The notes under the pieces were generated by a model, which was given only the letters and a program-made list of their open reading frames with translations, searched no databases and was not told the DNA's origin. Made by a program: the position numbers and the translations under genes. This document shows, piece by piece, positions 1-52,273 of a stretch of 64,000 bases of DNA. Position 1 is the first letter of the stretch, and each line of letters begins with the position of its first letter. The stretch lies in assembly GCF_003334405.1 (NCBI RefSeq), contig NZ_QOWM01000007.1; one strand, written 5' to 3'. Source of the DNA: Escherichia coli (GTDB lineage Bacteria; Pseudomonadota; Gammaproteobacteria; Enterobacterales; Enterobacteriaceae).

Positions 1-8
1 TTTTTTTA

Positions 9-1775
9 TTATTCCGTGACTTCCAGCGTAGTGAAGGCAAACTTCTCGCCATCAAATAGCCCCTGACTGGTTAGTTTTAGCGCGGGGATCACTGGCAGAG
101 AAAGAAACGCCATCTGAATAAACGGCTCATCGGGTAACGGACCGCATTCACGGGCGGCGGCTTTCAAGGCGTCAATTTGTTCCGCCAGCGACTGCGCCGT
201 GTCGGTGCTCATCAGCCCGGCAATGGGTAACGGCAGATGACTTTGTACCTGGCCGTTACGTACCACGCACAGCCCGCCGCCATCCTGAATCACCTGATTG
301 ACCGCCAGCGCCATCTCTTCGGCACTGCGACCGATCACCACAATATTATGGCTGTCATGGCTGACCGTCGCAGCCAGCGCACCTTCATTCAGTCCAAAGC
401 CGCCAAGCAAACCACAAGCCGGAGCCAGCCGTTGCCCGTAACGCTCAAGTACGGCAATAAAGCTCACATCATCGCGATCAAAACCATTTTCGCTGTAGAC
501 GCTGGAGTGGGAGTGCGTAATCAATTCGTTATGGATGACGTCAATGACCCGATAGCGTTTTCCGGGCGTAAATTGCAGGGCAAAGTCGCTGGCGGAAACT
601 GGCTGGCGGGCAATGGTGTTGCCATATGGCGGAGCGGATTGTGCCAGTCTCGCCGACTCTTCCGCCTGTAAGGTTTGCGCATCAATCGGCTCGCCTTTCA
701 CCAGTACCTGCTGCACCGTGACCTTACGCGCATCGCTCAACAGGACGATATCGGCCTGCTTGCCGGGTGCCAGTAAGCCGAGGTGATTCAGACCAAAGTG
801 GCGCGCCGTCGACCAGCTGGCGACGCGATATGCCACATGCAGCGGCACATTGTGTTGTTCGATCAGGCGGCGAATTAAGGCATCGATGTGTCCTTCATGG
901 GCGATCTCCCACGGGTTACGGTCATCGGTACAGAGCATGCATTGCGGGCTGTTAAATTCGTTGATCAACGGTGCCAGCGCGTTGAGATTGCGGGCAGCGG
1001 ACCCTTCGCGGATCATCAACGACATGCCGAGTTGTAATTTCCGGCGTCCTTCTTCCAGCTGATAACTTTCGTGGCAGTTTTCAATACCCGCAGTAATATA
1101 GGCGTTAAGTTCTTTACCACCCAAACCCGGGCAGTGACCGTCCAGCGTCAGGTGGCGAAATGCATCCAGTTTATCGAGCAGCGCATTCTGCCCGCTAATT
1201 ACGCCAGGGTAGTCCATCATTTCTGCAAGGCCGGTAACCTGCGGATGGTCCCGCCAGGCGAGCATCTGTTCAAGGGTAAAACTGGCACCGTTAACATCGC
1301 AGCCTTCCAGGGCGGGTACGCAAGAGCTGACCTGTAAGTACTGGTTTTGCCTTGCCTGTTCGGCACAGCGGGCAAACCAGGCGAATCCGGCTTCGCCCAT
1401 CACGTTGACGATTTCATGAGGGTCGCAAATAACGGTCGTCAGGCCGCGCGGCAGGGTAGCGGTTTCAAAAGTGACCGGCGTCATCATGCTGGATTCAATA
1501 TGCAGGTGAGCATCAATAAACCCTGGCACCGCCGTTGCGCCGCGAGCATCAATCCGCTGCAAAGCCGGAGCATCAGTGTATTCTGCGCCAACACCGGCAA
1601 TGTAACGTCCTTTAATCACAATTGGGCCGGAAATTTCTCCGCCATTGATCAGGTCGAGAATAGAGACATTATCAATAATATAATCGGCAACAGCGTCGCC
1701 ACGGGAAACGGCTAACAATTCCTGGTATTCAGCCCGGCTAATGTGATGAAATTTATGGTTAATAGAATTATTCAT
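9..1775 (-). CDS. ade: adenine deaminase
   Basis: 588-aa ORF, full-length match to E. coli Ade as recalled; amidohydrolase-type metal-binding HxH motif ([10 protein letters not shown]). Confidence 0.93.
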
Positions 1776-1949
1776 ATTTTTCTCATTTTGATTTTATCAA
1801 TTTGATTATTATTTATCATAAAGAAACGTCGCGAGATTATTAAAGAATATCCATTAATGTGCAATTGAAATGTGATAATTATCACTGAACCGTTGTTGTC
1901 ATTTGTTTTACAAAAGCAAGGGATTAAATCTCCTCCAATGGACAAAAAA

Positions 1950-3284
1950 ATGAATAATGACAATACCGATTACGTGAGTAATGAATCAGGGACGCTTTCG
2001 CGATTATTTAAACTACCTCAGCATGGGACCACCGTCCGCACAGAATTGATTGCGGGGATGACCACTTTTTTAACCATGGTGTACATCGTTTTTGTGAACC
2101 CGCAAATCCTCGGCGCGGCACAAATGGACCCGAAAGTGGTGTTTGTTACCACCTGTTTGATTGCCGGTATCGGCAGTATTGCGATGGGGATATTTGCTAA
2201 CTTACCCGTGGCGCTGGCTCCGGCAATGGGGCTGAACGCCTTCTTTGCCTTCGTGGTCGTGGGGGCGATGGGCATCTCCTGGCAGACCGGGATGGGCGCA
2301 ATATTCTGGGGCGCAGTTGGACTATTTTTGCTCACGCTGTTTCGTATCCGGTACTGGATGATCTCCAACATTCCCTTAAGTTTACGTATTGGTATCACCA
2401 GCGGAATTGGATTATTTATCGCCTTAATGGGATTAAAAAATACTGGCGTTATTGTCGCCAATAAAGACACGCTGGTGATGATTGGCGATTTAAGTTCTCA
2501 CGGCGTGTTGTTAGGTATTTTAGGGTTTTTTATTATAACCGTGTTGTCATCACGTCATTTTCATGCCGCGGTGCTGGTTTCTATTGTGGTGACGTCTTGC
2601 TGTGGATTATTTTTCGGTGATGTTCATTTTAGCGGCGTCTATTCCATTCCGCCTGATATTAGCGGCGTCATTGGTGAAGTAGATTTGAGCGGCGCGTTAA
2701 CACTTGAACTCGCCGGTATCATTTTCTCCTTTATGCTGATCAACCTATTTGATTCATCAGGAACATTAATTGGTGTAACTGATAAAGCGGGCTTAATAGA
2801 TGGTAACGGTAAATTCCCCAATATGAATAAGGCGCTGTATGTTGATAGCGTCAGTTCGGTGGCGGGTGCGTTTATCGGCACCTCGTCTGTTACTGCCTAT
2901 ATTGAAAGTACTTCTGGTGTGGCAGTCGGTGGCCGCACGGGGCTGACTGCGGTTGTGGTTGGCGTTATGTTCCTGTTGGTTATGTTCTTCTCACCGCTGG
3001 TGGCGATAGTTCCTCCTTACGCAACCGCCGGAGCGTTAATCTTTGTTGGCGTGCTGATGACTTCGAGCCTGGCGCGCGTTAACTGGGATGATTTTACCGA
3101 ATCGGTGCCTGCGTTTATTACCACGGTGATGATGCCCTTTACTTTCTCGATCACCGAAGGGATTGCACTCGGCTTTATGTCGTACTGCATCATGAAAGTA
3201 TGCACCGGGCGCTGGCGCGATCTGAACCTGTGTGTGGTGGTGGTCGCAGCTCTGTTTGCACTGAAGATTATTCTGGTGGATTAG
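1950..3284 (+). CDS. adeQ: adenine permease (NCS2/AzgA family)
   Basis: Multi-TM ORF matching E. coli AdeQ/YicO; ORF track begins at 1872 but the recalled N-terminus MNNDNTDYV starts at the ATG at 1950 (alternative ATG at 1938). Confidence 0.85.
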   Translation: MNNDNTDYVSNESGTLSRLFKLPQHGTTVRTELIAGMTTFLTMVYIVFVNPQILGAAQMDPKVVFVTTCLIAGIGSIAMGIFANLPVALAPAMGLNAFFAFVVVGAMGISWQTGMGAIFWGAVGLFLLTLFRIRYWMISNIPLSLRIGITSGIGLFIALMGLKNTGVIVANKDTLVMIGDLSSHGVLLGILGFFIITVLSSRHFHAAVLVSIVVTSCCGLFFGDVHFSGVYSIPPDISGVIGEVDLSGALTLELAGIIFSFMLINLFDSSGTLIGVTDKAGLIDGNGKFPNMNKALYVDSVSSVAGAFIGTSSVTAYIESTSGVAVGGRTGLTAVVVGVMFLLVMFFSPLVAIVPPYATAGALIFVGVLMTSSLARVNWDDFTESVPAFITTVMMPFTFSITEGIALGFMSYCIMKVCTGRWRDLNLCVVVVAALFALKIILVD

Positions 3285-3309
3285 TAACTGGCGAGGGTTT
3301 CCAGATATC

Positions 3310-3789
3310 ATGAGTTCTGATTACGCAGGAGAACTCATGATCTGGATAATGCTCGCCACGCTGGCGGTAGTGTTTGTGGTTGGTTTTCGGGTGCTGACAT
3401 CCGGGGCCAGAAAAGCGATTCGCCGTCTCAGCGATCGGCTGAACATCGATGTCGTACCCGTGGAGTCGATGGTCGATCAAATGGGAAAGTCAGCTGGTGA
3501 CGAATTTTTACGTTATTTGCATCGTCCGGATGAGTCGCACCTGCAAAACGCCGCGCAGGTGTTGCTCATCTGGCAAATTGTCATTGTCGATGGTAGCGAA
3601 CAGAACCTGCTGCAATGGCATCGGATTTTACAAAAAGCTCGCCTCGCCGCGCCGATTACCGACGCTCAGGTCAGGCTGGCGCTAGGTTTTCTGCGCGAAA
3701 CCGAACCTGAAATGCAGGATATTAATGCTTTTCAGATGCGCTATAACGCGTTCTTTCAGCCTGCCGAGGGCGTTCACTGGTTGCATTGA
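3310..3789 (+). CDS. yicN: DUF1198 family inner-membrane protein YicN
   Basis: 159-aa ORF with N-terminal hydrophobic helix, conserved synteny between adeQ and nepI; true start may be the internal ATG at 3337. Confidence 0.75.
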   Translation: MSSDYAGELMIWIMLATLAVVFVVGFRVLTSGARKAIRRLSDRLNIDVVPVESMVDQMGKSAGDEFLRYLHRPDESHLQNAAQVLLIWQIVIVDGSEQNLLQWHRILQKARLAAPITDAQVRLALGFLRETEPEMQDINAFQMRYNAFFQPAEGVHWLH

Positions 3790-3999
3790 AACCGTTTCGT
3801 CTTATCAGCCTACAGACCGCGCCTGACCTGTCGGGTGGATAAGACGTTCACGCCGCATCCGGTAATCTTTGCCCTGTTCCGTTTCGATCTTAACTCCAGC
3901 TCAAGCAACACCGTAAAAGTTGCAAAAACGTTAAATGCGTCACACATTTCAATGTTAAAGTGGTCGGCTTTTCCCCTGAAACATGCCACGGGTAACACC

Positions 4000-5190
4000 A
4001 TGAGTGAATTTATTGCCGAAAACCGCGGCGCGGATGCCATCACCCGACCGAACTGGTCAGCCGTTTTCTCGGTGGCGTTTTGTGTCGCCTGTCTGATTAT
4101 CGTTGAGTTTTTGCCCGTCAGTTTGTTGACGCCAATGGCCCAGGATTTAGGCATTTCGGAAGGGGTTGCCGGGCAATCGGTGACCGTGACCGCCTTTGTG
4201 GCAATGTTTGCCAGTTTGTTTATTACCCAGACAATTCAGGCTACTGACCGCCGCTACGTTGTTATTTTGTTTGCCGTTTTGCTGACGCTCTCCTGCTTGC
4301 TGGTTTCCTTTGCTAACTCATTCAGTTTGCTTTTAATCGGTCGTGCCTGTCTGGGGCTGGCGCTGGGCGGGTTCTGGGCGATGTCGGCGTCGCTGACCAT
4401 GCGTCTGGTGCCGCCGCGTACGGTGCCGAAGGCGCTGTCGGTGATCTTCGGCGCGGTTTCTATTGCGCTGGTGATTGCCGCGCCGTTGGGCAGTTTTTTA
4501 GGCGAGCTTATCGGTTGGCGCAATGTCTTTAATGCGGCGGCGGTGATGGGCGTGCTGTGTATTTTCTGGATTATCAAATCATTGCCTTCACTGCCAGGCG
4601 AACCCTCGCATCAGAAACAAAATACTTTCCGCTTATTACAACGTCCGGGTGTGATGGCAGGGATGATCGCCATCTTCATGTCTTTCGCCGGGCAGTTTGC
4701 TTTCTTCACGTATATTCGCCCGGTGTATATGAACCTGGCGGGATTCGGCGTGGATGGCTTAACGCTGGTGCTGTTGAGTTTTGGTATCGCCAGCTTTATT
4801 GGTACGTCGCTTTCGTCGTTCATTCTTAAACGTTCGGTAAAACTGGCCTTAGCAGGCGCGCCGTTAATACTGGCTGTGAGTGCGTTGGTACTGACGTTGT
4901 GGGGAAGCGATAAAATCGTTGCTACCGGCGTGGCGATTATCTGGGGGCTAACTTTTGCATTGGTTCCCGTCGGCTGGTCAACGTGGATCACCCGCTCGCT
5001 GGCCGATCAGGCAGAAAAAGCCGGGTCTATTCAGGTGGCGGTTATTCAGCTTGCTAATACCTGTGGCGCGGCAATCGGCGGTTATGCGCTGGATAATATT
5101 GGTCTGACTTCGCCGTTGATGTTGTCCGGCACATTGATGTTGCTGACTGCATTGTTGGTTACTGCAAAGGTGAAAATGAAGAAATCCTGA
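4000..5190 (+). CDS. nepI: purine ribonucleoside efflux pump (MFS)
   Basis: ORF track starts at 3835, but the MFS protein begins [10 protein letters not shown] at the ATG at 4000 (396 aa); 12-TM pattern. Confidence 0.88.
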
Positions 5191-5230
5191 TATCAGGTAA
5201 AGAAGCGTTGGTCAGTAGTTGTTGCTGTTC

Positions 5231-5524
5231 TTACATATCCGGGCATTCTACCTTACCCAACGCTTCCCAATAATTGCTCTGATTATTACGTTCCATCGCC
5301 ACGATGGCCTCGCGTATATGTTGTTTATTGTTTTCATCTGACAACATTAACTTTTCCCACGCTTCATCTGATAATGACGCCTGTGGCGTGCAAATTTTAC
5401 GTAAATCTTGTAATACCGTGGTTTTCTCTTTTGCGGACTGCAGTGAGCTAAAAGGCGACTCGGCGTATACGATGCCTGGCATAGCGAAAAAAGTGAAAAT
5501 AAGCAGTAGTGTCGTTGGTTTCAT
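5231..5524 (-). CDS. yicS: small secreted protein YicS
   Basis: 97-aa ORF with N-terminal signal peptide (MKPTTLLLIFTFFAMPGIVYA). Confidence 0.8.
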   Translation of the reverse strand: MKPTTLLLIFTFFAMPGIVYAESPFSSLQSAKEKTTVLQDLRKICTPQASLSDEAWEKLMLSDENNKQHIREAIVAMERNNQSNYWEALGKVECPDM

Positions 5525-5745
5525 GGATTCAACCTTTTACAAATGTGTATCGAATGAAGCATAAGTGTAGTTTGCTTTCATCGCTCTCATCATGCTGTAC
5601 GAAACGCGCTTGCGTGGTCAGTAAGAAGTGCCAGACTTTATATTCCACTTTTATTCCTTTTTATTCTTATCGATAGCGTTTCGTTTTTTAAACCGCAGCG
5701 ACCTTACCGCTATAGTCAGGTAATCATTAATAAAAGGATAAAAAA

Positions 5746-6564
5746 ATGAAACTGACAACACATCATCTACGGACAGGGGCCGCATTATTGCTGGCCGGAA
5801 TTCTGCTGGCAGGTTGCGACCAGAGTAGCAGCGATGCAAAACACATTAAAGTTGGCGTTATAAATGGCGCAGAACAAGATGTCGCGGAAGTCGCTAAAAA
5901 GGTGGCAAAAGAGAAATATGGCCTCGATGTTGAACTGGTAGGATTTAGCGGTTCGTTGCTACCGAACGATGCGACAAATCATGGCGAACTTGATGCGAAT
6001 GTCTTCCAGCATCGACCCTTTCTTGAACAAGATAATCAGGCGCATGGTTATAAACTGGTAGCGGTGGGAAATACGTTTGTCTTCCCTATGGCGGGTTATT
6101 CCAAAAAAATCAAAACCGTGGCGCAAATAAAAGAAGGCGCGACAGTGGCGATCCCCAACGACCCGACCAACCTTGGTCGCGCACTTTTACTGTTGCAAAA
6201 AGAGAAGCTAATTACTCTGAAAGAGGGAAAAGGGTTATTACCTACCGCGCTGGATATAACCGATAATCCTCGTCATTTGCAGATTATGGAACTCGAGGGG
6301 GCGCAGCTCCCGCGCGTACTGGATGATCCCAAAGTTGATGTAGCGATTATCAGCACCACTTACATTCAGCAGACCGGGCTTTCTCCGGTGCACGACAGCG
6401 TATTTATTGAAGATAAGAATTCGCCGTATGTGAATATTTTGGTGGCACGGGAAGATAATAAGAATGCAGAAAACGTGAAGGAATTTCTGCAATCTTATCA
6501 ATCACCCGAAGTCGCTAAAGCGGCAGAAACCATTTTTAACGGTGGCGCGGTGCCTGGCTGGTAA
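5746..6564 (+). CDS. nlpA: lipoprotein-28, methionine-binding NlpA family
   Basis: 272-aa ORF with lipobox LLAGC; matches E. coli NlpA. Confidence 0.92.
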   Translation: MKLTTHHLRTGAALLLAGILLAGCDQSSSDAKHIKVGVINGAEQDVAEVAKKVAKEKYGLDVELVGFSGSLLPNDATNHGELDANVFQHRPFLEQDNQAHGYKLVAVGNTFVFPMAGYSKKIKTVAQIKEGATVAIPNDPTNLGRALLLLQKEKLITLKEGKGLLPTALDITDNPRHLQIMELEGAQLPRVLDDPKVDVAIISTTYIQQTGLSPVHDSVFIEDKNSPYVNILVAREDNKNAENVKEFLQSYQSPEVAKAAETIFNGGAVPGW

Positions 6565-6567
6565 TTC

Positions 6568-7491
6568 TCACTTATGCCGCGCCGGACGATTTATTTTTCT
6601 GGCGCGGCGACGGGAATCCATTGAAATCAAAATCACCGATGACAGAATCAGCAGCGTTCCCAGCCAGTCCGGTAATGTGAACGTGATCCCCAGCAACAGC
6701 AAAGAGAGTAGCGCGCTACTTAATGGTTCTGCACAGCTCAAAATGCTGGCTTTTGGACCGCCAATTAATTGTGCTCCTTTCAGGTACAGACTAAATGTCA
6801 GGGACGTACCAATGACCACCAAATAAAAAAACGCCAGAATCAAACTGCCGTTAACGACAAAGTTTGTTCCTTGTCTGGCATAAAAAGGCAACAGAATCAG
6901 ACCGCCAATCAGCATACTCCAGCCGACGACTGGTAACGTGCCATAGCGGGCAATTAGCGTTGAGGGATAGGTGGTATAGAATGCAGCAGCAAATGCCGAG
7001 GCAATGCCCCAGAACAACGCGGCAGGAGAGATCGATAATGACGTCGGATTACCGTGTGTCACCAATAAAAAAGTCCCGACCAGCGATGTCAAAATAGCGC
7101 AGAAAACCAGAATGCCCGGGCGCGATTTACGCACCAGTGAGAACCAGGCGACGATAATCGTCGGTGAGAGGAATTGCAGCACCGTTGCCGTGGCTGCGTT
7201 CGATTTTTCGATGGTTAGCAAAAAAGTGAGCTGTACAGTTAGCGCGCCAACCACGGAAAAAATCAGCAGGCTAATGGCATCTTTATGATTGTTAATAATA
7301 GAAAAGATTTTATCGCCATGAACAAATGACAGCGTCAGTAGAATCAAACCGGCGAATATCAAACGCGTCATAGTCAAAAACTGCGACGACATCTGGCTTT
7401 GCTCCATGATGTATTGCGCGCAGACCCCTGAACTTCCCCACAACACGGCGGCAATCAGAACGTTCAGCATCCCCTTTCTGGTGGAACCCAT
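6568..7491 (-). CDS. yicL: EamA/DMT family transporter YicL
   Basis: 307-aa 10-TM ORF, conserved position between nlpA and setC. Confidence 0.85.
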
Positions 7492-7601
7492 TTTTCCCTC
7501 TGCATACTGTTTTGTCGTTTATGTATGCAGGCATGATAGCAAAAATGGCGAGGATGGCTCTGTTTGCGCCACGCCGATTTTTCTTAGCCCAGACTGGTGA
7601 G

Positions 7602-8786
7602 CTAAATATCTTTAATAAACAGCAGGCAAATCATCGCAATACCCAACATCCCTATCGCCAGCCAGAACAACGCATGGTAGCTCCAGATTTCAACCATAAT
7701 TCCGTCAACAGAGCCGGCGATAATCCAGCCGACGCGTGAAGTATTTGCATATAACGTTGTCGCAGAGCCTATTTTTTCAGGCATCAAGTCCTGAAAATAA
7801 AGCATGCCGATACCACAGAGAATACCAAGGAAGATGGCATTAAGAATTTGCAATTCCAGCTCAACCGCCGGAGTCGTCGCCATGAGTACGCTGGCGTAAA
7901 AACACATTCCACTCACGATAGCAATGAGCATTAATAGTCGCTTGCCAATACGTTTCATGTAATAGCCTGCGATTAACATCATCGGAATTTCCAGACCGGC
8001 AGCGATACCAATCATTTCTCCAGCCAGTTTATCGGTTAGATGCAGTTCATCAATAATAAATAGCGGCATATTTATCATGTAGAGATTATTCGCCGCCCAC
8101 ATCATTGAACAGACCACAAAAAGTAGCCGCGTATCCCGCTTCCTGTGGGTGGAGGGTAAAATTTCTACGGGTTGGGTAACGACAGGAATATTTCTTTGTA
8201 TTGATGGCAAAAACAACCAGACTATCAGTCCGCAAACAACAAATGCGATGGCAGCGGTGAGATACATCACTTTAAAACTAAATCCCATTGCCAGTTCATA
8301 AGCGAGCGGTGGCCCGATAACCCAGGCAAGCGAGATCTGAGCACGTAAAAATGTACTGAACATGACCGTCTCACGGCCTGTTCTGTCGGCGTGTTCACGG
8401 GCGAGGGCGAACATTTGCGGGTTTGCGGTGGAAGCAAAACTACTCAGAAGTACGCCCGTTGAGAGGAGAATGAAGTAGTTGCGATTCCACGCAAAAAGCG
8501 TGCAGGCCAGCACTCCAAATAAGCAACATAGCAGAATCAGTAATTTACGGTCGCCTTGTTTATCGGAGTGCCTTGCCAGAAATTGACTGACCAGAATTCC
8601 CATAATAGCGCTACCGGTGAAGAAAAAACCTACCATTATAGGACGGGCTTTCAGTTCATCTGCGAGGAATATACTTAGGGTAGGAGTCTGAAGAGCGCCC
8701 GCAATACCCGTCAGAAAGGCGACAAGTAAAAATGCCGCGGCAGTGAGATCAAGTATTTTTGATGGAGTGGTAGCCGTTTTTTGCAT
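7602..8786 (-). CDS. setC: sugar efflux transporter SetC (MFS)
   Basis: 394-aa MFS ORF matching SetC/YicK. Confidence 0.88.
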   Translation of the reverse strand: MQKTATTPSKILDLTAAAFLLVAFLTGIAGALQTPTLSIFLADELKARPIMVGFFFTGSAIMGILVSQFLARHSDKQGDRKLLILLCCLFGVLACTLFAWNRNYFILLSTGVLLSSFASTANPQMFALAREHADRTGRETVMFSTFLRAQISLAWVIGPPLAYELAMGFSFKVMYLTAAIAFVVCGLIVWLFLPSIQRNIPVVTQPVEILPSTHRKRDTRLLFVVCSMMWAANNLYMINMPLFIIDELHLTDKLAGEMIGIAAGLEIPMMLIAGYYMKRIGKRLLMLIAIVSGMCFYASVLMATTPAVELELQILNAIFLGILCGIGMLYFQDLMPEKIGSATTLYANTSRVGWIIAGSVDGIMVEIWSYHALFWLAIGMLGIAMICLLFIKDI

Positions 8787-9422
8787 TCTTCTGAATCACC
8801 GGGCGAAAAAATATAACTGAGTTACAAATAAGTACCAGTCGAATGAGTATTGTATTAAGAATTTTTGAGTATCGCTGATACAACCAGAAAGCAATGCTAG
8901 CGCAATATTATAGGGCCAGCAATTGAGATTATTAGTAAAAGCATGTTAAGAATTAATTACCGAATTTATATATTAATTATAGTAAGGCAATGAGCTATTT
9001 TTGATAGTAAAAATAAAACAAGTTGATTTGATATATTAAATGAACAAATTAATCTTGATGGCAGTCTGATTATTGGTGAAGTTTATAGTCAGTTTTTTTC
9101 GCCAGCGGTTAAAGAAATAGAATAGTCGTATAAAAAAGGGTGTTCTGGGGCGAGTAAAACAACATCTTCACCTTAATGGCGATACAGTTGGCTGAGAGTC
9201 AGCAGGGGGGCAAATCACCTGCAAATAAACACGGCGCATACTGGCGTGAATATCGCGGATGCGTTCGAGGACAGAAGAACCGACAGGCGGATTCTTCAGC
9301 CGCTCATCGTCCATCACAAAACCTTAGACCAGGTATTCCTGAAGCCGATTGAATATTGAGCAGTAGAAAATATCTGGATTGACAGTATTACAAGGGGTTG
9401 GAGAACGTCAGGAGAGGCATTT

Positions 9423-9517
9423 TGGCGGAAGATCACAGGAGTCGAACCTGCCCGGGACCGCTGGCGGCCCCAACTGGATTTGAAGTCCAGCCGCCTCACC
9501 GGAGACGACGATCTTCC
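9423..9517 (-). tRNA. selC: tRNA-Sec (selenocysteine, anticodon UCA)
   Basis: The reverse complement of 9423..9517 reads GGAAGATCGTCGTCTCCGGTGAGGCGGCTGGACTTCAAATCCAGTTGGGGCCGCCAGCGGTCCCGGGCAGGTTCGACTCCTGTGATCTTCCGCCA, the 95-nt E. coli selC tRNA with long variable arm and encoded CCA. Confidence 0.97.
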
Positions 9518-9548
9518 GCGCCTCGATTGCTACATGGAGGCGGGGCGC

Positions 9549-9554
9549 ATTATA
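9549..9554 (-). promoter_or_regulatory. candidate -10 hexamer (TATAAT) of the selC promoter with GC-rich discriminator
   Basis: Minus strand reads ...gtagcTATAATgcgccccgcc... about 30 nt upstream of the mature tRNA 5' end; the GC-rich discriminator is typical of stable-RNA promoters; -35 not clearly assignable. Confidence 0.45.
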
Positions 9555-9809
9555 GCTACTTCCTTGAGTTTCTACATCCCCCAGATCAGTTTTTTCCGCC
9601 TAATACACGCAGCGTATTATCACGAAAGCATTATAGTTCATATAAAATCCATATTTTACAATGATATATGAGCGGAATTAACGCTACCACGATCACATAA
9701 AACAAGAATCATAAATTAATAACCAGATATCGGAATATTCGCTCTCACAGGGATGGTTTACAAAATGCGTTATCGGTCTCAGCACCCCTATAGCATCAAG
9801 GAAAAGTAG

Positions 9810-11192
9810 ATGAAGAGTGAAGTGTTGTCCGTTAAAGAGAAAATTGGTTATGGCATGGGAGACGCCGCCAGCCACATTATTTTCGATAACGTAATGTTAT
9901 ATATGATGTTCTTTTATACCGATATTTTTGGCATTCCTGCCGGATTTGTCGGAACCATGTTTTTGGTCGCTCGTGCACTGGATGCGATTTCCGATCCTTG
10001 CATGGGGTTGTTGGCCGATCGAACGCGCTCTCGCTGGGGTAAATTTCGTCCGTGGGTACTGTTTGGCGCACTGCCATTTGGGATCGTCTGTGTACTGGCC
10101 TATAGCACGCCAGATCTCAGTATGAACGGAAAAATGATTTATGCAGCAATTACTTACACCCTACTTACCTTACTTTATACCGTCGTCAATATCCCTTACT
10201 GCGCATTGGGTGGTGTAATCACCAATGACCCGACTCAGCGTATCTCGCTGCAATCCTGGCGTTTTGTGCTGGCGACCGCGGGAGGCATGCTTTCTACGGT
10301 TCTGATGATGCCACTGGTTAATTTAATTGGTGGTGATAATAAACCACTCGGTTTCCAGGGTGGTATCGCGGTCCTTTCCGTGGTGGCATTCATGATGCTG
10401 GCATTCTGTTTCTTCACCACTAAAGAACGCGTTGAAGCACCACCTACAACGACGTCTATGCGGGAAGATTTACGTGATATCTGGCAAAACGACCAGTGGC
10501 GGATTGTCGGTTTACTAACCATTTTCAATATCCTGGCGGTGTGCGTACGCGGTGGAGCGATGATGTATTACGTCACATGGATTTTGGGTACGCCGGAAGT
10601 GTTTGTCGCTTTTCTCACCACTTATTGCGTGGGTAACCTGATTGGTTCCGCTCTGGCAAAACCGCTGACCGACTGGAAATGTAAAGTCACTATTTTCTGG
10701 TGGACGAACGCCCTGCTGGCAGTGATTAGCCTCGCGATGTTCTTTGTTCCCATGCAGGCCAGCATCACTATGTTTGTCTTCATCTTCGTGATTGGTGTGT
10801 TGCATCAACTGGTGACACCTATCCAGTGGGTAATGATGTCCGATACCGTCGACTACGGCGAGTGGTGCAATGGTAAACGCCTGACCGGGATCAGTTTTGC
10901 TGGCACGCTGTTTGTGCTCAAACTGGGGTTGGCCTTCGGCGGCGCTCTTATCGGCTGGATGCTGGCTTATGGCGGATATGATGCGGCAGAAAAAGCGCAG
11001 AACAGCGCCACGATTAGCATCATTATTGCGCTATTCACGATTGTTCCGGCGATCTGTTATTTGCTGAGCGCGATTATCGCTAAACGCTACTACTCACTCA
11101 CGACGCACAATCTGAAAACCGTTATGGAACAGCTGGCCCAGGGCAAACGCCGTTGCCAGCAACAATTCACCTCTCAAGAAGTGCAGAACTAA
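9810..11192 (+). CDS. yicJ: GPH-family glycoside/cation symporter (putative xyloside transporter)
   Basis: 460-aa 12-TM ORF matching YicJ; immediately upstream of yicI. Confidence 0.88.
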   Translation: MKSEVLSVKEKIGYGMGDAASHIIFDNVMLYMMFFYTDIFGIPAGFVGTMFLVARALDAISDPCMGLLADRTRSRWGKFRPWVLFGALPFGIVCVLAYSTPDLSMNGKMIYAAITYTLLTLLYTVVNIPYCALGGVITNDPTQRISLQSWRFVLATAGGMLSTVLMMPLVNLIGGDNKPLGFQGGIAVLSVVAFMMLAFCFFTTKERVEAPPTTTSMREDLRDIWQNDQWRIVGLLTIFNILAVCVRGGAMMYYVTWILGTPEVFVAFLTTYCVGNLIGSALAKPLTDWKCKVTIFWWTNALLAVISLAMFFVPMQASITMFVFIFVIGVLHQLVTPIQWVMMSDTVDYGEWCNGKRLTGISFAGTLFVLKLGLAFGGALIGWMLAYGGYDAAEKAQNSATISIIIALFTIVPAICYLLSAIIAKRYYSLTTHNLKTVMEQLAQGKRRCQQQFTSQEVQN

Positions 11193-11201
11193 GGAACGGC
11201 A

Positions 11202-13520
11202 ATGAAAATTAGCGATGGAAACTGGTTGATTCAACCTGGCCTCAATTTGATTCACCCGCTTCAGGTGTTCGAGGTTGAACAGCAGGGTAATGAAATGGTG
11301 GTCTATGCTGCCCCCCGTGATGTGCGTGAACGTACCTGGCAGCTTGATACGCCTTTATTTACGCTGCGCTTTTTCTCCCCACAGGAAGGTATTGTCGGTG
11401 TACGGATTGAGCATTTTCAGGGGGCGCTGAATAACGGTCCTCATTACCCACTCAATATTTTGCAGGACGTGAAGGTCACAATCGAAAACACAGAGCGTTA
11501 TGCTGAGTTTAAAAGTGGCAACTTAAGTGCGCGTGTCAGCAAAGGTGAGTTCTGGTCACTGGATTTTCTGCGCAACGGCGAACGTATTACCGGTAGTCAG
11601 GTGAAAAATAATGGCTACGTGCAGGACACGAATAATCAACGAAATTATATGTTTGAGCGGCTGGATCTTGGCGTTGGCGAAACAGTTTATGGTCTGGGAG
11701 AGCGCTTCACTGCCCTGGTGCGCAATGGTCAAACGGTAGAGACCTGGAACCGGGACGGCGGCACAAGTACTGAACAGGCGTATAAAAATATCCCGTTCTA
11801 CATGACTAACCGTGGTTATGGGGTACTGGTCAATCATCCCCAATGCGTCTCTTTTGAAGTGGGATCGGAGAAAGTCTCCAAAGTGCAGTTCAGCGTTGAG
11901 AGTGAATATCTCGAATACTTTGTTATCGACGGTCCGACGCCGAAAGCGGTACTTGATCGTTATACCCGCTTTACTGGTCGTCCGGCGCTGCCGCCCGCGT
12001 GGTCCTTCGGTCTGTGGCTAACCACTTCATTTACCACCAACTACGACGAGGCGACAGTAAACAGCTTTATCGATGGTATGGCGGAACGCAATCTGCCACT
12101 GCATGTTTTCCACTTTGACTGTTTCTGGATGAAAGCCTTCCAGTGGTGCGATTTTGAGTGGGACCCGCTGACTTTCCCGGACCCGGAAGGGATGATCCGC
12201 CGCCTGAAAGCGAAAGGGCTGAAAATCTGCGTCTGGATTAACCCCTATATCGGGCAAAAATCCCCCGTCTTTAAAGAGTTACAAGAGAAAGGCTATTTAC
12301 TCAAACGCCCGGACGGTTCGCTGTGGCAGTGGGATAAATGGCAGCCAGGTCTGGCGATTTATGACTTTACCAATCCGGATGCCTGCACATGGTACGCCGA
12401 CAAACTGAAAGGTCTGGTCGCGATGGGCGTTGATTGCTTTAAGACCGACTTTGGCGAACGTATCCCAACCGATGTTCAGTGGTTTGACGGTTCCGATCCG
12501 CAGAAAATGCATAACCATTATGCGTACATCTACAACGAACTGGTGTGGAACGTGCTCAAGGACACCGTTGGTGAGGAAGAAGCCGTCTTGTTTGCCCGCT
12601 CGGCCTCCGTTGGTGCGCAGAAATTCCCGGTACACTGGGGTGGTGACTGTTACGCTAACTACGAATCAATGGCGGAAAGCCTGCGCGGTGGTTTGTCTAT
12701 TGGCCTTTCAGGTTTTGGCTTCTGGAGCCACGATATCGGCGGCTTTGAAAATACCGCTCCGGCACACGTTTACAAACGCTGGTGCGCGTTTGGTTTGCTC
12801 TCCAGCCATAGCCGTTTACATGGCAGCAAATCTTATCGTGTGCCGTGGGCCTACGATGATGAGTCCTGTGATGTGGTGCGCTTCTTCACGCAACTGAAAT
12901 GCCGCATGATGCCGTATCTGTATCGTGAAGCTGCGCGTGCAAACACGCGGGGTACGCCGATGATGCGGGCCATGATGATGGAGTTCCCGGACGATCCGGC
13001 TTGTGATTACCTTGACCGTCAATACATGTTAGGCGACAACGTGATGGTTGCGCCGGTGTTCACTGAAGCGGGCGATGTGCAGTTCTACCTGCCGGAAGGT
13101 CGCTGGACACACCTGTGGCACAACGATGAACTCGACGGTAGTCGCTGGCATAAACAGCAGCACAGCTTCCTGAGTCTGCCCGTTTATGTGCGTGATAACA
13201 CTCTACTGGCGCTGGGCAACAACGATCAACGTCCCGATTACGCGTGGCACGAAGGCACGGCATTCCACCTCTTTAATCAGCAAGACGGGCATGAAGCCGT
13301 CTGTGAAGTGCCCGCTGCTGACGGTTCGGTGATCTTTACTCTAAAAGCAACACGTACTGGTAACACGATTACTGTGATTGGTGCGGGCGAGGCGAGGAAC
13401 TGGACACTGTGCTTGCGCAATGTTGTGAAAGTAAATGGTCTGCAAGGCGGTTCGCAGGCTGAAAGTGAGCAGGGGCTGGTGGTGAAGCCTCAAGGGAATG
13501 CGCTGACAATTACGTTGTAA
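11202..13520 (+). CDS. yicI: alpha-xylosidase (GH31)
   Basis: 772-aa ORF matching E. coli YicI; GH31 catalytic region (WIDMNE-like KTDFGERIP context). Confidence 0.92.
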
Positions 13521-13536
13521 TCTATTGATGGAATGC

Positions 13537-13559
13537 CGGGTACGTCTGAGTCGTACCCG
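13537..13559. terminator. stem-loop between convergent yicI and yicH (probable bidirectional terminator)
   Basis: Inverted repeat cgggtacg-tctgagt-cgtacccg seen directly between the two stop codons. Confidence 0.5.
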
Positions 13560-13572
13560 ACGAGATTGATGT

Positions 13573-15282
13573 TTACTGCACCGGCTCCGTCGATGTAACT
13601 TCACCGCTGGAAACGACGCCCGCATTCATGGTTTGAGTCACTTGCTGCTTTGCGGCGTTCACGGCATGCAATTGCCCGCTAACCGTAGGTTTCAGCGGGG
13701 CATTGGCCTGAATATCTCCACTGGCGGTAAGCTGAATATTGCCGTCGCCAGTCAACGGTAATTCAGGCCATCCCCATTGTTGCAAAATATTCACCGGCAC
13801 ACCGCGTCCATTCAGGCTGATATGGGTCTGACGTTGTGGCGTTTGTGAAACACTGGCGGTGGCTTCCAGAATGCCTTTTTCAGTAAATGCACTCAGTTCG
13901 CTGATATTCACCGTGCTGCTGTTGGCGGTCAGCGCCAGCGACGGGCGACGAACATCAACACGATTGAATGTCGCGGCGGCGGCATTCAGATTCGCCGAGC
14001 CACTCCAGACGCCCCATTTATGATCGGTAACCAGCGTCAGGTTGGCACCGTAACCATCGAGCGTGGTGAGCTGCCACGGGAAGTCAGGGTCGATATCAAT
14101 GATCAGATTGCGGCTGGCGCTAAATCTCTTCAGTTGCAGGCTGTTTAACCAACCGGGTGTCGTTTCCATCCACAACTGTTGCCAGTTTTTCGGCAAGGTA
14201 TATTCCAGCCCGGCAATTGCCGCATCATCAAGGATCAACGTTTTCCCGTCACGCAGCCAGTTCCCTGACGTTCTGACCATACCCCCTTCCCAGCGGCTGG
14301 TGAACTGGCGCAGCGCTACGCCCTGCGGGGAAAATTCCGCGTTTATAATCGGGTCAAATAAATGCAGCGAACCATAAATGAACTCGCTAGCGTTCATCGA
14401 CAGTTTGCCTTCTTGTGTCTGCCAGTCATCTTTACTGAAGGTCATGTTGCGCAAGCTGAGATCGAGGTCGGTCACCGCCCAGTCCGGACCTTGCAAACGA
14501 GCATCGATCACTTCCAGGCGACCAATCTGCAACGACGGGACAGAGCGTAATGGCGCAAAGAAGTCGGTTAGCGATTTTTCGCTTTGTAGACGGATATCCG
14601 CCATGCGCAGGTTTTCCACTTGCCAGCTGCCGTCGGCGTTACGCTGCGCGTTTCCGGTTAATGTCCCGCGCGCGATGTCGGCACCCAGGTTAGTCAGCGT
14701 AACGCGATCGTTATCAATACTGCCTTCAATCAGTACATTGGTGGCAGGAACATCATTGAGCGAAAGCGATCCGGCACTAAACTGAATCTGCGCCTTCGTA
14801 CCCAGCACTTTACCGGCTTCTGGTGACCACGGAACCACGCCGCCATTTACCCGCTGCGCGCTCAGTTTCCATTCGCTATTCGGGCTATTAAACGCCATAT
14901 CACGCAGTTGCAGACGATCGGCTTTGAACGGTAGCGGCGCGGTCTGGTCGGTGAGATTCAGCGTCCCGTTTTCCAGCAGGATGGTATCGACATGGCGTGG
15001 TTCGGTCAGTTGCCGACTACTTAGCGCAATGTCGACACTTTTGGCCACCAGGGTCGCGGGCTGGCCATCACGACCAAACGTGACATTCTCCAGCACGATA
15101 TGAGATGGCGCGGAAAAACGGTGATCCATCGCCCCGAAGGCCAGATGATAGTCGCTATTCTCGGAAACCCATGCGCTGATATGTTCTGCTCCCCAGCGGG
15201 TTTGCAGAAGAAAATAGAGGCCAGCGATCACCACTAACAGAGCGATGAGAATGTAGAGAAGCAGCTTCCCAATAAATTTCAT
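13573..15282 (-). CDS. yicH: AsmA-family outer-membrane assembly protein YicH
   Basis: ORF 13573..15306; recalled protein starts MKFIGKLLLY (569 aa), i.e. the ATG at 15282; N-terminal TM anchor. Confidence 0.85.
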   Translation of the reverse strand: MKFIGKLLLYILIALLVVIAGLYFLLQTRWGAEHISAWVSENSDYHLAFGAMDHRFSAPSHIVLENVTFGRDGQPATLVAKSVDIALSSRQLTEPRHVDTILLENGTLNLTDQTAPLPFKADRLQLRDMAFNSPNSEWKLSAQRVNGGVVPWSPEAGKVLGTKAQIQFSAGSLSLNDVPATNVLIEGSIDNDRVTLTNLGADIARGTLTGNAQRNADGSWQVENLRMADIRLQSEKSLTDFFAPLRSVPSLQIGRLEVIDARLQGPDWAVTDLDLSLRNMTFSKDDWQTQEGKLSMNASEFIYGSLHLFDPIINAEFSPQGVALRQFTSRWEGGMVRTSGNWLRDGKTLILDDAAIAGLEYTLPKNWQQLWMETTPGWLNSLQLKRFSASRNLIIDIDPDFPWQLTTLDGYGANLTLVTDHKWGVWSGSANLNAAAATFNRVDVRRPSLALTANSSTVNISELSAFTEKGILEATASVSQTPQRQTHISLNGRGVPVNILQQWGWPELPLTGDGNIQLTASGDIQANAPLKPTVSGQLHAVNAAKQQVTQTMNAGVVSSGEVTSTEPVQ

Positions 15283-39797: not shown

Positions 39798-40587
39798 ATT
39801 AGAAGAGCCACTTGCCACACTCTGGCGTGGTAAAGATGCCTTTGCAGAAGTTAAAAAACTGAATGGCGAGGTCTTCCGTGAACTGGAGACGCGTCGCACA
39901 TTACGCTTTGAACTGGCCGGCAAAAGTTATTTCCTCAAATGGCACAAAGGGACGACCCTAAAGGAGATTATAAAAAATCTGCTCTCATTGCGGATGCCCG
40001 TTTTAGGTGCAGACAGAGAGTGGCACGCTATTCATCGACTGCATGATGTCGGTGTTGATACGATGCACGGAATAGGATTTGGTGAAAAAGGGTTAAATCC
40101 ATTAACTCGCACATCATTTATTATTACCGAAGATCTCACTCCCACAATTAGCCTTGAAGATTATTGTGCAGATTGGGCGGTCAACCCGCCTGATGTACAT
40201 ATTAAGCGTATGCTGATCGCGCGTGTGGCAACCATGGTGCGCAAAATGCATGCAGCAGGGATTAATCACCGTGATTGTTATATCTGCCACTTTTTACTCC
40301 ATTTGCCATTTACTGGCCGGGAAGATGAATTAAAAATTTCGGTTATCGATCTGCACCGGGCACAGATACGTGCAAAAGTACCACGTCGTTGGCGGGATAA
40401 AGATTTGATTGGTTTATATTTCTCATCAATGAATATTGGTCTGACGCAGAGAGATATCTGGCGATTTATGAAGGTTTATTTTGGGATGCCTTTACGCGAT
40501 ATTTATAGACTTGAGATTGATTTACTTAAAAAGGCAAGGATTAAAGCAGGAAAAATAGAAGCAAGAACAATAAGAAAAAACTTGTAA
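39790..40587 (+). CDS. waaP: LPS core heptose(I) kinase
   Basis: 265-aa kinase-like ORF matching WaaP; overlaps the waaG 3' end. Confidence 0.95.
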
Positions 40588-40619
40588 ATAGTATTTTATT
40601 ACAAAAAGGGATTCTAAAA

Positions 40620-41600
40620 TTGTTGAAATATAGAAACTTCGTTGCTAAGAAGAAAAATTTATACCAAAACGAAGTGTCGTATGTTAAAAATTTACATATT
40701 GCACTATGCTTTGACCGTGAATTCATAATGCCAGCGGGTGTTGCATTATATTCAATTATATCCAACAATAGACATATTAACCTTCATTTTCACCTTCTTA
40801 TATCAGGCATAGAAGAAAAGGAGTGTTCAGCTTTTTACGAACTAGAAGGTCCTAATACATCAATATCTGTATATTATATAACTGATAAATTTGACATTAA
40901 TCCGGATACATTAGTTCTTGGTATTCCTTTATCAACATGTTTACGTTTTTTAATCCCAGAAGTTATTGATGATAAAATAAATAAGATACTTTATCTTGAC
41001 TGTGATGTCATATGTAATGGTCCTTTAGATGAACTGGTTGATTATAATTTAAATGCTGATATTGCATGTGTAATTCCAGATTCGCCAGAAATGCAAGAAC
41101 GTGTAAAAAAATTAGACTATGGCATTGAGTTTATTAATTATTTTAATGCCGGGGTTATGTTTATTAATACCAGCGAATGGAAAAAAAATAATATAACACA
41201 AAAAGCGTTAGAAATGATCAACAGTGGAAAAGTATATAGGTATGCAGATCAGGATGTGCTCAATATTTTACTTAATGGACGAGTGCATTACCTTGATAAG
41301 AAGTACAATAATAAGACAACATTGTCAGTACGATGTGATGAAGAACAAAAAAACTTGCCCAACACAATTATAATGCATTATGTTACCCAGAATAAACCAT
41401 GGTACAAAATATTTAGAGCACAAAATTTTGATCATTATTTTTCAAATTCTCCTTGGAAGAACCATAAAAGAAATCTAGCTCCATCATCAAGTGAGATTAG
41501 GTTAAAGTCTAAAGTTTTTTGGCTAGAAGGAAAATATTGTAAAGCCATTTCTTATTATTATAAGTATTTACTTGTTAAATTATTTGGCTTAAAGATTTAG
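40620..41600 (+). CDS. GT8-family LPS outer-core glycosyltransferase (paralog 1, at the position waaS occupies in K-12)
   Basis: 326-aa ORF with GT8 motifs seen directly: YLDCDVIC (DxD), YFNAGVMFIN, ADQDVLN, QNKPWYK; TTG start per ORF track, so the start is uncertain; N-terminal region is divergent (ALCFDREF where the other two have AYGxDxNY-type). Confidence 0.75.
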   Translation: MLKYRNFVAKKKNLYQNEVSYVKNLHIALCFDREFIMPAGVALYSIISNNRHINLHFHLLISGIEEKECSAFYELEGPNTSISVYYITDKFDINPDTLVLGIPLSTCLRFLIPEVIDDKINKILYLDCDVICNGPLDELVDYNLNADIACVIPDSPEMQERVKKLDYGIEFINYFNAGVMFINTSEWKKNNITQKALEMINSGKVYRYADQDVLNILLNGRVHYLDKKYNNKTTLSVRCDEEQKNLPNTIIMHYVTQNKPWYKIFRAQNFDHYFSNSPWKNHKRNLAPSSSEIRLKSKVFWLEGKYCKAISYYYKYLLVKLFGLKI

Positions 41601-41613
41601 CTGGAATGAAATT

Positions 41614-42693
41614 ATGAAAATAGCCTTTATTGGCGAAGCTGTTTCTGGATTTGGCGGCATGGAAACAGTCATTCGTGATGTTATTACTACCTTCAGGCAA
41701 CAACATATCCAAAGTGAAATTTTTTTCTTTTGTCGTAATGACAAAATGGATAAGGGATGGCTGGAAGGTATTAAGTACTCGTGTTCATTTTCCAATATTC
41801 GCTTAGGTTTTTTGCGTCGCGCGAAACATATTCATGCTTTAAGCAAATGGCTTCATGATTATCAGCCAGATGTTGTTATTTGTATTGACGTGATCTCGTG
41901 TTTGTATGCGGCCAAAGCTCGTAAAAAATCGGGGATTGATGTACCTGTATTTTCATGGCCGCATTTTTCTTTAGATCATAAAAAACATGCCGAATATATC
42001 ACCTGTGCCGACTATCATTTAGCCATCAGCTCTGGTATTAAACAGCAAATGATTAGCCGGGGTGTACCAGAATCGACAATAAACGTTATTTTTAATCCCG
42101 TTGAGGCGAAAAATTCAGTCATTCCTGCACCCGGGGAAGGCGAAACGGCAACATTCATTTATGTTGGGCGCATGAAATTTGAAGGCCAAAAGCGCGTAAA
42201 AGATCTGCTTGATGGCTTATCACAAGTGCAAGGTGACTGGAAACTTCATGTATTGGGAGATGGCTCCGATTTCGAAAAATGCCAGGCTTATGGTAGAGGA
42301 TTAAATATTGATGATCGAATTGTCTGGTATGGTTGGCAACAACATCCCTGGAAATTAGTTCAGCAAGATATTAAAAAAGTGAGTGCATTATTACTCACGT
42401 CATCTTTTGAAGGTTTCCCAATGACTCTACTTGAAGCCTTGTCGTGGGGGATCCCTTGTATCAGTGCAGATTGTGTCTCCGGGCCTGTTGATATCATTCA
42501 GCCTGATGTTAATGGTCATTTATATCAACCGGGGGATATGACCGGTTTTGTTGCTCTTCTCAATAAATACATAGCCGGTGAAATTCACATCGCACATGAA
42601 AAAATTCCGGCGTCGATCGATAAATTTTATCAACCGAAATATTACGACAGATTGCAAAAGATAATTATTTCTGTTATTTCCCGGAGGAAATAA
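41614..42693 (+). CDS. waaB: UDP-galactose:(glucosyl)LPS alpha-1,6-galactosyltransferase (GT4)
   Basis: 359-aa ORF starting MKIAFIGEAVSGFGGMETVI, collinear with recalled WaaB; GT4 EX7E-type C-terminal region. Confidence 0.85.
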   Translation: MKIAFIGEAVSGFGGMETVIRDVITTFRQQHIQSEIFFFCRNDKMDKGWLEGIKYSCSFSNIRLGFLRRAKHIHALSKWLHDYQPDVVICIDVISCLYAAKARKKSGIDVPVFSWPHFSLDHKKHAEYITCADYHLAISSGIKQQMISRGVPESTINVIFNPVEAKNSVIPAPGEGETATFIYVGRMKFEGQKRVKDLLDGLSQVQGDWKLHVLGDGSDFEKCQAYGRGLNIDDRIVWYGWQQHPWKLVQQDIKKVSALLLTSSFEGFPMTLLEALSWGIPCISADCVSGPVDIIQPDVNGHLYQPGDMTGFVALLNKYIAGEIHIAHEKIPASIDKFYQPKYYDRLQKIIISVISRRK

Positions 42694-43712
42694 TGCAGCA
42701 GGTTTTTTTCCAGGAGACTGAGTTTCTCAATTCGGTTATTGATTATAATCATAAAATAGAAGCAGAAAATCTTTGTCTGGATATTGCTTATGGGACTGAC
42801 AAAAATTTTCTTTTTGGATGCGGAATATCGATTGCTTCAATATTAAAATATAATGAAGGAAATCAATTATGCTTTCATATTTTTACTGATTATTTCGGTG
42901 ATGACGATCGCAAATATTTTGATGCCCTGGCCAGGCAATATAAAACAAGAATTAAGATATATTTAATTAATGGTGATCGACTCCGTTCATTACCCTGCAC
43001 CAAGAACTGGACTCATGCTATTTATTTTCGTTTTGTTATCGCCGATTACTTTTTTAATAAAGCACCCAAAGTTCTTTATCTGGATGCAGATATTATTTGT
43101 CAGGGAACTATAGAACCACTTATCAATTACACGTTTTCTGAACATACAGTCGCAATGGTTGTTACAGAAGGACAAAAAGACTGGTGGGCAAAACGTGCTC
43201 ATTCGTTAGGTGTTGCTGGGATTGCTAATGGTTACTTTAACTCCGGTTTTTTACTGATTAATACTAATCAATGGACGAATGAGCGGGTTTCTGCACGGGC
43301 CATTGCAATGTTAAGTGATCCAGAGATAGTCAAAAAAATAACACATCCTGATCAGGATGTATTAAATATGTTATTGGCAGACAAACTTGTTTATGCTGAT
43401 ATTAAATATAACACTCAGTTTAGTTTAAATTATCAACTAAAAGAAAGTTTTAAAAACCCAGTAACTAACGATACAGTTTTTATTCATTATATTGGTCCAA
43501 CTAAACCCTGGCATGACTGGGCCTGGGATTATCCAATATCACAAGCTTTTATGGCGGCAAAAAATGCTTCACCATGGAAGGATACTGCGTTATTGAAACC
43601 GGTTAATAGTAATCAATTAAGATACAGTGCTAAACATATGTTGAAAAAAAAGCAATATATCAAAGGATTTGACAACTATCTTTTGTATTTTATAAAAAAG
43701 CTAAAGCATTAA
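42693..43712 (+). CDS. waaO: GT8-family LPS outer-core glucosyltransferase (WaaO/WaaI-like, by motif and position)
   Basis: 339-aa ORF with motifs IAYGTDKNF, YLDADIIC, YFNSGFLLIN, PDQDVLN, GPTKPWH; start overlaps the waaB stop; the name is assigned by synteny only. Confidence 0.7.
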   Translation: MQQVFFQETEFLNSVIDYNHKIEAENLCLDIAYGTDKNFLFGCGISIASILKYNEGNQLCFHIFTDYFGDDDRKYFDALARQYKTRIKIYLINGDRLRSLPCTKNWTHAIYFRFVIADYFFNKAPKVLYLDADIICQGTIEPLINYTFSEHTVAMVVTEGQKDWWAKRAHSLGVAGIANGYFNSGFLLINTNQWTNERVSARAIAMLSDPEIVKKITHPDQDVLNMLLADKLVYADIKYNTQFSLNYQLKESFKNPVTNDTVFIHYIGPTKPWHDWAWDYPISQAFMAAKNASPWKDTALLKPVNSNQLRYSAKHMLKKKQYIKGFDNYLLYFIKKLKH

Positions 43713-43724
43713 TACTGATAATCT

Positions 43725-43848
43725 ATACTCTAAATAATTCGAGTTGCAGGACAAAAAGCCAGTGGCGTTTTGAGGAACGCTTGCGTTGGCCCTGAAATGC
43801 CGAGTAACTCGCCGATGCAGCACATGCAACTTGAAGTATAACGAGTAT
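43725..43848. repeat. ERIC/IRU-related imperfect palindromic element with divergent core
   Basis: Termini atactc...ttcgagttgca and tgcaacttgaagtataacgagtat are inverted complements and resemble the ends of the ERIC copy at 51001..51133; occupies the 163-bp gap between two GT8 genes. Confidence 0.45.
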
Positions 43849-43875
43849 ATAAAGTAATGATATAAGGATAGCCTT

Positions 43876-44892: not shown

Positions 44893-44909
44893 CATTTAAC
44901 TGGTTTAAC

Positions 44910-45608: not shown

Positions 45609-45679
45609 AGTAAAAGTCTTACATTTAAACGTCTTCGTCAGGACATTTCTATGCGGAGTTCTTATTTCACAGGTTTATC

Positions 45680-46489: not shown

Positions 46490-46541
46490 TATTTTATATG
46501 TGTTTATTACGTGTTATAAATTATATTGGAGTTGGCTAATA

Positions 46542-47684: not shown

Positions 47685-47702
47685 AAATTATTGGATTTGA
47701 AG

Positions 47703-47740
47703 AGCCTGCCTGAACTTAATGTCAGGCAGGCTTTTTTTTA
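47703..47740. terminator. bidirectional rho-independent terminator between waaK and waaL
   Basis: agcctgcctga-acttaatg-tcaggcaggct followed by T8; the waaL stop codon lies within the T-tract. Confidence 0.75.
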
Positions 47741-48955: not shown

Positions 48956-48993
48956 TGCTTCTCCACCATCTTAAATAATATATAACGTATTAA

Positions 48994-52060: not shown

Positions 52061-52273
52061 AACTGTAACCTTCGAATTGTGGAGTCAGAGACAATCTCAG
52101 ACACGAATACTTCTATCATATCACTACACGGCGCTGGCTACAGCCATTCACCGAAAGTGGTATGCCTGAGCGTGATTTATGCTTATTTTTTGACAAGTAC
52201 AAATGCTTCATCTCGTATCAACCTATGGCTTTCGGTAATATGTGCTGAAATTTGCCCAGTCTGGAGAATCGCG

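Follow-up and report, generated by a model that had tools for sequence, protein, structure and literature searches.

An unoccupied, K-12-type selC attachment site in Escherichia coli with probable scars of earlier occupancy

The 3' flank of selC in this strain is very probably a K-12-type attachment site that is currently unoccupied and that carries scars of earlier occupancy. The selC gene is intact, its 3' terminal core of 21-24 nt is present as a single copy, and neither an integrase nor cargo is seen after it; in other strains, islands with P4-family integrases enter that same core and displace the same spacer from selC. The selC-proximal, GC-normal part of the spacer holds a dead internal fragment of rhuM (yicT in K-12). 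In LF82-type E. coli and several other Enterobacterales, selC is followed directly on its 3' side by intact rhuM, which in some cases is accompanied by an integrase or an att repeat. The fragment would thus be a deletion leftover of an old rhuM-carrying selC element, and the AT-rich part of the spacer may be a xenogeneically silenced regulatory region for setC that arrived, or diverged, jointly with that gene. Both the rhuM fragment and the AT-rich region are already known, from K-12 and RefSeq annotation and from a published list.

Organisation of the selC 3' flank

The window, which is the whole stretch of 64,000 nucleotides that was analysed, contains a single tRNA gene according to ARAGORN: a tRNA-Sec gene with anticodon tca (UCA) at positions 9423-9517 on the minus strand. 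The gene scores 83.8 bits against the tRNA-Sec model RF01852 of Rfam, for which the gathering score is 47, and together with the UCA anticodon this places it in the family as intact selC. The junction region (9300-9540) is 100% identical to that of many strains, HB101 among them. Genes in this part of the window follow the order nlpA, yicL, setC, selC, yicJ and yicI, and the next gene downstream of selC is setC (7602-8786, minus strand, 46.2% GC), an open reading frame of 394 codons with its start codon at 8786 that is annotated in matching genomes as a sugar efflux transporter paralog. The spacer between the two genes (8787-9422) measures exactly 636 bp, in agreement with the original prediction, which had described an intact selC at this distance from setC. 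Between positions 8400 and 9900, selC is the only RNA family matched in Rfam at E<=1.

The spacer had also been described as split in composition, with an AT-rich half next to setC and a GC-normal half next to selC, and the split is borne out by GC contents of 31.0% at 8790-9170 and 48.8% at 9171-9422, compared with 49.1% for the window as a whole. A composition as AT-rich as that of 8790-9170 is reached by only 2.3% of 381-nt windows, and all the others lie within the waa cluster. Taken as an island criterion, the base composition (31% GC at 8790-9170, 46% in setC and 49% in the window) fits a foreign origin and is non-specific.

The 3' terminal 21-24 nt of selC (9423-9446, minus strand), which form the attB core that is duplicated by selC islands, occur here once. 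They are followed by a 15-nt trailer, AAATGCCTCTCCTGA (9408-9422, minus strand), that is common to K-12-type and LF82-type flanks: it is identical to LF82 at 15/15 positions, a score reached by 0/500 shuffles, and a side-by-side comparison of junctions places its last 11 nt in the left arm of integrase-bearing islands as well. Alignment of the spacer with K-12 and with island junctions, as the original prediction had advised, found the K-12 locus colinear, and the homology of the window to LF82, O157:H7, 536 and Z142-6 ends at 9408. The first 15 nt after selC are the only sequence common to the selC flank and the island arms.

Between the trailer and the rhuM fragment lies a 63-nt stretch of unassigned origin (9345-9407, minus strand), which is conserved among K-12-type genomes and has a 77.5% match in a divergent E. 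coli lineage (L032). An origin of the stretch from the attL side of a P4-type island, as the decayed remains of its left arm, was considered and rejected as unsupported, the alignments not being significant: the scores of 9345-9407 against island left arms were reached by 12-69 of 500 shuffles, and those of 9346-9407 in local alignments with the arms of O157:H7, Z142-6, E. albertii and P. vulneris were equalled or beaten by 12-340 of 500.

Island hallmarks in the window

A tblastn search of the 64-kb window with the selC-adjacent P4-type integrase of O157:H7 returned nothing at E<=1e-3, in keeping with the predicted lack of an integrase in the spacer; with the same query, dozens of other species gave integrases at a distance of ~160-300 bp from selC. 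A direct repeat of the selC 3' end, whose duplication within the spacer would have pointed to an island remnant, had been sought only by eye, and the computational search that was then recommended gave the same answer. When the terminal 21-mer was searched with <=3 mismatches, the only copy was that of selC itself (0 expected), and when the 14-mers of the selC 3' 45 nt and the 15-nt trailer were searched with <=2 mismatches, none recurred within 5000-9407 (shuffle mean 0.9). In a comparable repeat search, positive controls were recovered from E22 (24 nt), P. vulneris (16 nt) and I. alba (21 nt).

No cargo that is absent from island-free references was found, the region 5501-12000 being aligned to K-12 MG1655 free of gaps at 99.46% identity. 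A second selC-associated region, eip/selC-B, lies beyond nlpA in EAEC 042 (PMC7058095); it is absent here, and positions 1-9000 are colinear with the backbone of E22 and LF82. The strain is without the LEE, PAI-I, selC-A or any other selC island, because the locus is colinear with K-12 MG1655 and the same junction occurs in ~46% of complete E. coli genomes. The absence of a selC-integrated island, as had been proposed, is supported by a gap-free K-12 match that lacks both an integrase and an att repeat.

In K-12 MG1655, selC, yicT and setC (b3658, b4653 and b3659) follow the same order, with the same indel-free spacer of 636 bp, the same position of yicT/rhuM and the same AT-rich region, and the two loci differ by point substitutions only.

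Distribution of the junction among E. coli genomes

The contiguous junction, queried as 9300-9540, is present in 2,490 of 5,426 complete E. coli genomes (~46%), and in 3,619 of the 5,426 at least 80% of the spacer is found, whatever lies next to it. Since 3,619 genomes have the spacer and 2,490 the contiguous junction, ~1,100 genomes have kept the spacer parted from selC. In these, the match consists of the spacer and exactly the last 21-24 nt of selC, with the real tRNA gene at a second place. In E22, setC is followed by the spacer with its rhuM fragment, a perfect 24-nt selC repeat and then a CP4-like island, and in EAEC 042 a 21-bp selC repeat is followed by setC, yicL and nlpA (PMC7058095). 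The selC islands with P4-family integrases, exemplified by O157:H7, selC-A of EAEC 042 and E22, insert at the selC 3' core that the window has in intact form, and E22 and EAEC 042 retain this same spacer beyond their islands. Unlike the window, the loci of O157:H7, EAEC 042 and E22 have an integrase ~160-300 bp after selC and tens of kilobases of cargo, and those of E22 and EAEC 042 have a selC repeat of 21-24 nt. Because the islands elsewhere sit between selC and this spacer, the window represents the pre-insertion state.

The order in O157:H7 is selC, integrase, remnant element, LEE and yicL, and a deletion has removed the spacer and all of setC except a 174-bp 3' fragment (L007:4986-5159 in strain OK1). 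The far border of the LEE region there lies inside setC, the insertion having been accompanied by a deletion, and the selC 3' end was detected only once in the O157:H7 locus. In some strains an IS1 element is inserted in this spacer (H1, NZ_CM129855.1; H11, NZ_CP073718.1; and Z142-6, L004), and in Z142-6 an IS1-flanked integrase fragment stands in place of window positions 8842-9407.

The practical use lies in strain typing: with its K-12-type selC junction, the strain has no LEE, PAI-I, selC-A or eip island at this hotspot.

A block that varies between K-12-type and LF82-type flanks

When the window was compared with LF82 by blastn, the alignment broke at 7520/7521, between setC and yicL, and at 9407/9408, 15 nt after selC. 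The segment between these breaks (7521-9407) comprises setC and nearly the whole spacer, 1,887 bp at 43.6% GC, and in its place LF82 has 2,279 bp that hold rhuM and a hypothetical gene. In the LF82 type, selC is followed at a distance of 52 bp by the start of an intact rhuM; next come a hypothetical gene rich in AT and then yicL, and setC is absent. The LF82-type (B2-like) flank therefore has the same selC, 15-nt trailer and yicL side as the window, whereas its rhuM is intact (345 aa) and setC is missing, compared with a 54-codon remnant and a present setC here. After the shared 15 nt, ~20 nt of the LF82-type flank are nearly identical to the left arm of the integrase-bearing element of O157. 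With breaks at both ends, the two lineages differ by replacement of a whole block, and setC itself lies within a segment that differs between major E. coli lineages. Either rhuM was lost and setC gained in the K-12 type, or the reverse change took place in the LF82 type.

The best-surviving alternative, although it is considered improbable, is that the 1.9 kb of 7521-9407, with setC, the AT-rich region and the rhuM scar, constitute a degenerate acquired islet that replaced rhuM and its neighbour, in which case a small element that no longer moves would occupy the site. The 844 genomes that carry the LF82-type rhuM segment lack the block and have rhuM and the hypothetical gene between the same breakpoints, and its GC content is 43.6% compared with 49.1% for the window. 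Its AT-rich region is, in K-12, bound by H-NS in all the ChIP data sets considered, and the gene next to it was called foreign by one of three predictors (PMC3661553). Furthermore, none of 120 loci from other species, many of which have short flanks, showed setC on the 3' side of selC. However, the block is not marked by an att repeat, an integrase or a transposase, most genomes have the K-12-type arrangement, which extends to divergent lineages, and the LF82 type, which starts with an island-like left arm, could itself be the derived state. An old duplication is equally possible as the origin of setC, which shares ~72% nucleotide identity with its chromosomal paralog setB; this identity, the GC content of 46% and the absence of setC after selC elsewhere are compatible with either duplication or acquisition. 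An unoccupied K-12-type site with scars of earlier occupancy remains the preferred reading.

LF82 also differs from the window on the other side of selC, where a cluster of BglG-antiterminator, PTS, aldolase and lyxose-isomerase genes lies between yicI and yicH (L003:16873-23816, compared with window positions 12000-14740). This cluster is present in the LF82 type and absent from both the window and K-12.

The rhuM fragment and its relatives next to selC

The original prediction had found no cargo genes in the spacer, and indeed no gene there is intact, but a pseudogene fragment of rhuM is present at 9183-9344 on the minus strand. The fragment, of 54 codons, is supported by RefSeq annotation, tblastn and Pfam. 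In RefSeq, matching genomes carry a rhuM pseudogene under the spacer that corresponds to window positions 9183-9344 on the minus strand, and the MG1655 pseudogene yicT (b4653) is the equivalent of 9183-9314. By tblastn, the fragment aligns with residues 121-185 of the 345-aa RhuM of LF82 at 63% identity (E 3e-18), and its 54 residues match Pfam family PF13310 at E 3.2e-10 over model positions 52-98 of 252. It contains one in-frame stop and deletions of 8 and 3 codons, and its N- and C-terminal parts are missing. The fragment thus has the family profile match and lacks an intact frame over the domain. A literature search for yicT returned unrelated text only.

Depending on the strain, intact LF82-type rhuM shares 94.7-98.6% identity with a 75-nt core of the fragment, compared with a lower 87-91% for rhuM of other genera, and a Salmonella Infantis record matches the fragment at 71%. 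At the sequence level, the fragment and LF82-type rhuM would share a common descent within E. coli.

One genome per species was scanned for the selC 3' 26-mer, which yielded 120 loci whose flanks were compared with reference proteins. A P4-type integrase starts ~160-300 bp after selC in dozens of Enterobacterales. The gene immediately 3' of selC is an intact rhuM in Morganella psychrotolerans, in Pseudescherichia vulneris and in one Enterobacter species, and rhuM fragments occupy the same position in Klebsiella, Hafnia, Xenorhabdus, Photorhabdus, Erwinia and Kosakonia. In E. albertii, rhuM stands behind an integrase remnant 3' of selC, and in P. vulneris a stretch with rhuM as its sole gene separates selC from a perfect repeat of 16 nt of the tRNA gene's 3' end.

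The P. vulneris locus, from strain NBRC 102420 (L038), has the selC 3' end at oriented position 12147 and the repeat at 10741, 1,406 bp downstream; selC, an island-type arm, a full-length rhuM and a repeat of ~20/21 nt together make up an att-flanked islet of ~1.4 kb without an integrase.

SPI-3 of Salmonella is a multi-gene island of ~17 kb that includes mgtCB, misL and other genes, none of which is present in the window. The island lies at tRNA-selC and contains rhuM (PMC3680342), so that a rhuM-family gene is found in the selC 3' flank of Salmonella as it is here.

The description of the site as naive is the part of the original prediction that does not hold, given that an island remnant, a fragment of the SPI-3 gene rhuM, is present, and it lies in the GC-normal half of the spacer and not in the AT-rich half, where a remnant had been anticipated if there was one. 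It is very unlikely that the site was never occupied and that the spacer is ordinary intergenic DNA. Although the lack of an integrase, an att repeat and an intact gene would agree with such a history, as would an organisation identical to that of the K-12 reference, both the tblastn and the Pfam match identify a rhuM fragment at the place where other E. coli and other genera have intact rhuM, and at other loci rhuM is accompanied by a selC integrase or by an att repeat. Earlier occupancy by a rhuM-carrying element is therefore favoured, and it bears on the use of K-12-type selC as a pristine attB reference, since a decayed rhuM (yicT) and an AT-rich region bound by H-NS are already present in this flank.

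The intact RhuM of LF82 (L003:11391-12428) matches PF13310 and, in PADLOC, the candidate phage-defence family PDC-S05 (E 3e-173); neither RhuM nor the hypothetical protein of LF82 has a matching model in NCBIfam. A more far-reaching and rather doubtful proposal is that rhuM (PDC-S05) could be the recurrent first cargo of selC-targeting elements across Enterobacterales, sometimes as a single-gene, att-flanked and integrase-less islet, of which P. vulneris would be an example, that uses integrases in trans, and that yicT could be the fossil of such a cassette, replaced by the setC block. If this were true, the "empty" K-12 selC site would be a record of defence-gene cassette turnover.

Two further observations concern the database records of these genes. 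One Salmonella record annotates a homolog of LF82 RhuM as a Fic-family toxin. In short metagenome-assembled contigs that are labelled Bacillota, Clostridiales and Sphingobacterium (L008, L050 and L055), rhuM or a P4-type integrase lies beside a selC 3' end of enterobacterial type, and these contigs are probably mis-binned Enterobacterales DNA.

The AT-rich half of the spacer

The AT-rich half, immediately upstream of setC, coincides with a promoter island published for K-12. Table 1 of Panyukov and Ozoline (2013) lists the selC/setC island as 3834632_331, an entry of 331 bp in U00096.2 (PMC3661553). The entry was carried over to window positions 8800-9130 (29.6% GC) by means of a 1,977-bp offset between genome versions, which was checked with the waa entries of the same table, and of the gap-free K-12 alignment; the region is the same as the listed K-12 entry, and positions 8787-9182 are 100% identical to K-12 W3110. 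A simple sigma-70 consensus scan of 7500-9900 placed 1 site in the AT-rich half compared with 5.1 expected, although the published method, PlatProm, is a different one. Because the consensus scan gave no excess of promoters, the promoter-island label rests on the published algorithm and on ChIP. In the light of that literature, the AT-rich half is most likely an H-NS-silenced upstream region of setC.

As a sign of an island remnant, the original prediction had put forward homology between this half and known island termini, and none was found in 5,426 genomes or in plasmid or phage records. A sensitive blastn search of the 5,426 E. coli genomes located the AT-rich half at one place per genome and at this locus only, and in the plasmid and phage collections the only matches were to what look like mislabelled chromosomes and contaminated records, and to setB paralogs of setC. 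Being homologous to nothing beyond its own locus, the AT-rich half was ruled out as an island terminus.

Among the records just mentioned, the Campylobacter phage entries MG065686.1 and MG065691.1 contain E. coli setC-selC DNA at 99.9% identity, and the PLSDB entries NZ_OL790696.1, NZ_CP141089.1 and NZ_CP134663.1 are "plasmids" of 4.8-4.9 Mb that are evidently chromosomes; the presence of setC-selC DNA in these phage and megabase-scale plasmid records looks like database contamination or mislabelling.

It is highly improbable that a small RNA or a small protein missed by annotation is encoded in the AT-rich half, since the search for positive signs yielded only open reading frames of 32-44 codons overlapping 8749-8894, the Rfam search at E<=1 returned selC alone, K-12 and RefSeq annotate no feature there, and the composition and published H-NS binding fit silenced DNA.

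Differences from K-12 elsewhere in the window

Outside the selC locus, the window departs from K-12 in its waa core genes and in the absence of htrL, which indicates that the strain is not K-12. At 52109-52170, 62 bp stand in place of the 1,284 bp that contain htrL in K-12. The waa (LPS core) genes at 40498-49050 differ from those of K-12, and it is here that the remaining very AT-rich stretches of the window are all located. Within it, waaS is replaced by a GT8-like open reading frame (40620-41600), and waaB, waaO and waaJ are only 86-88% identical to their K-12 counterparts. A WaaK-type GlcNAc transferase (46500-47684) and a different O-antigen ligase (47738-48955) are found in place of waaU and waaL, and with these differences in the waa genes the strain has a non-K-12 core type.
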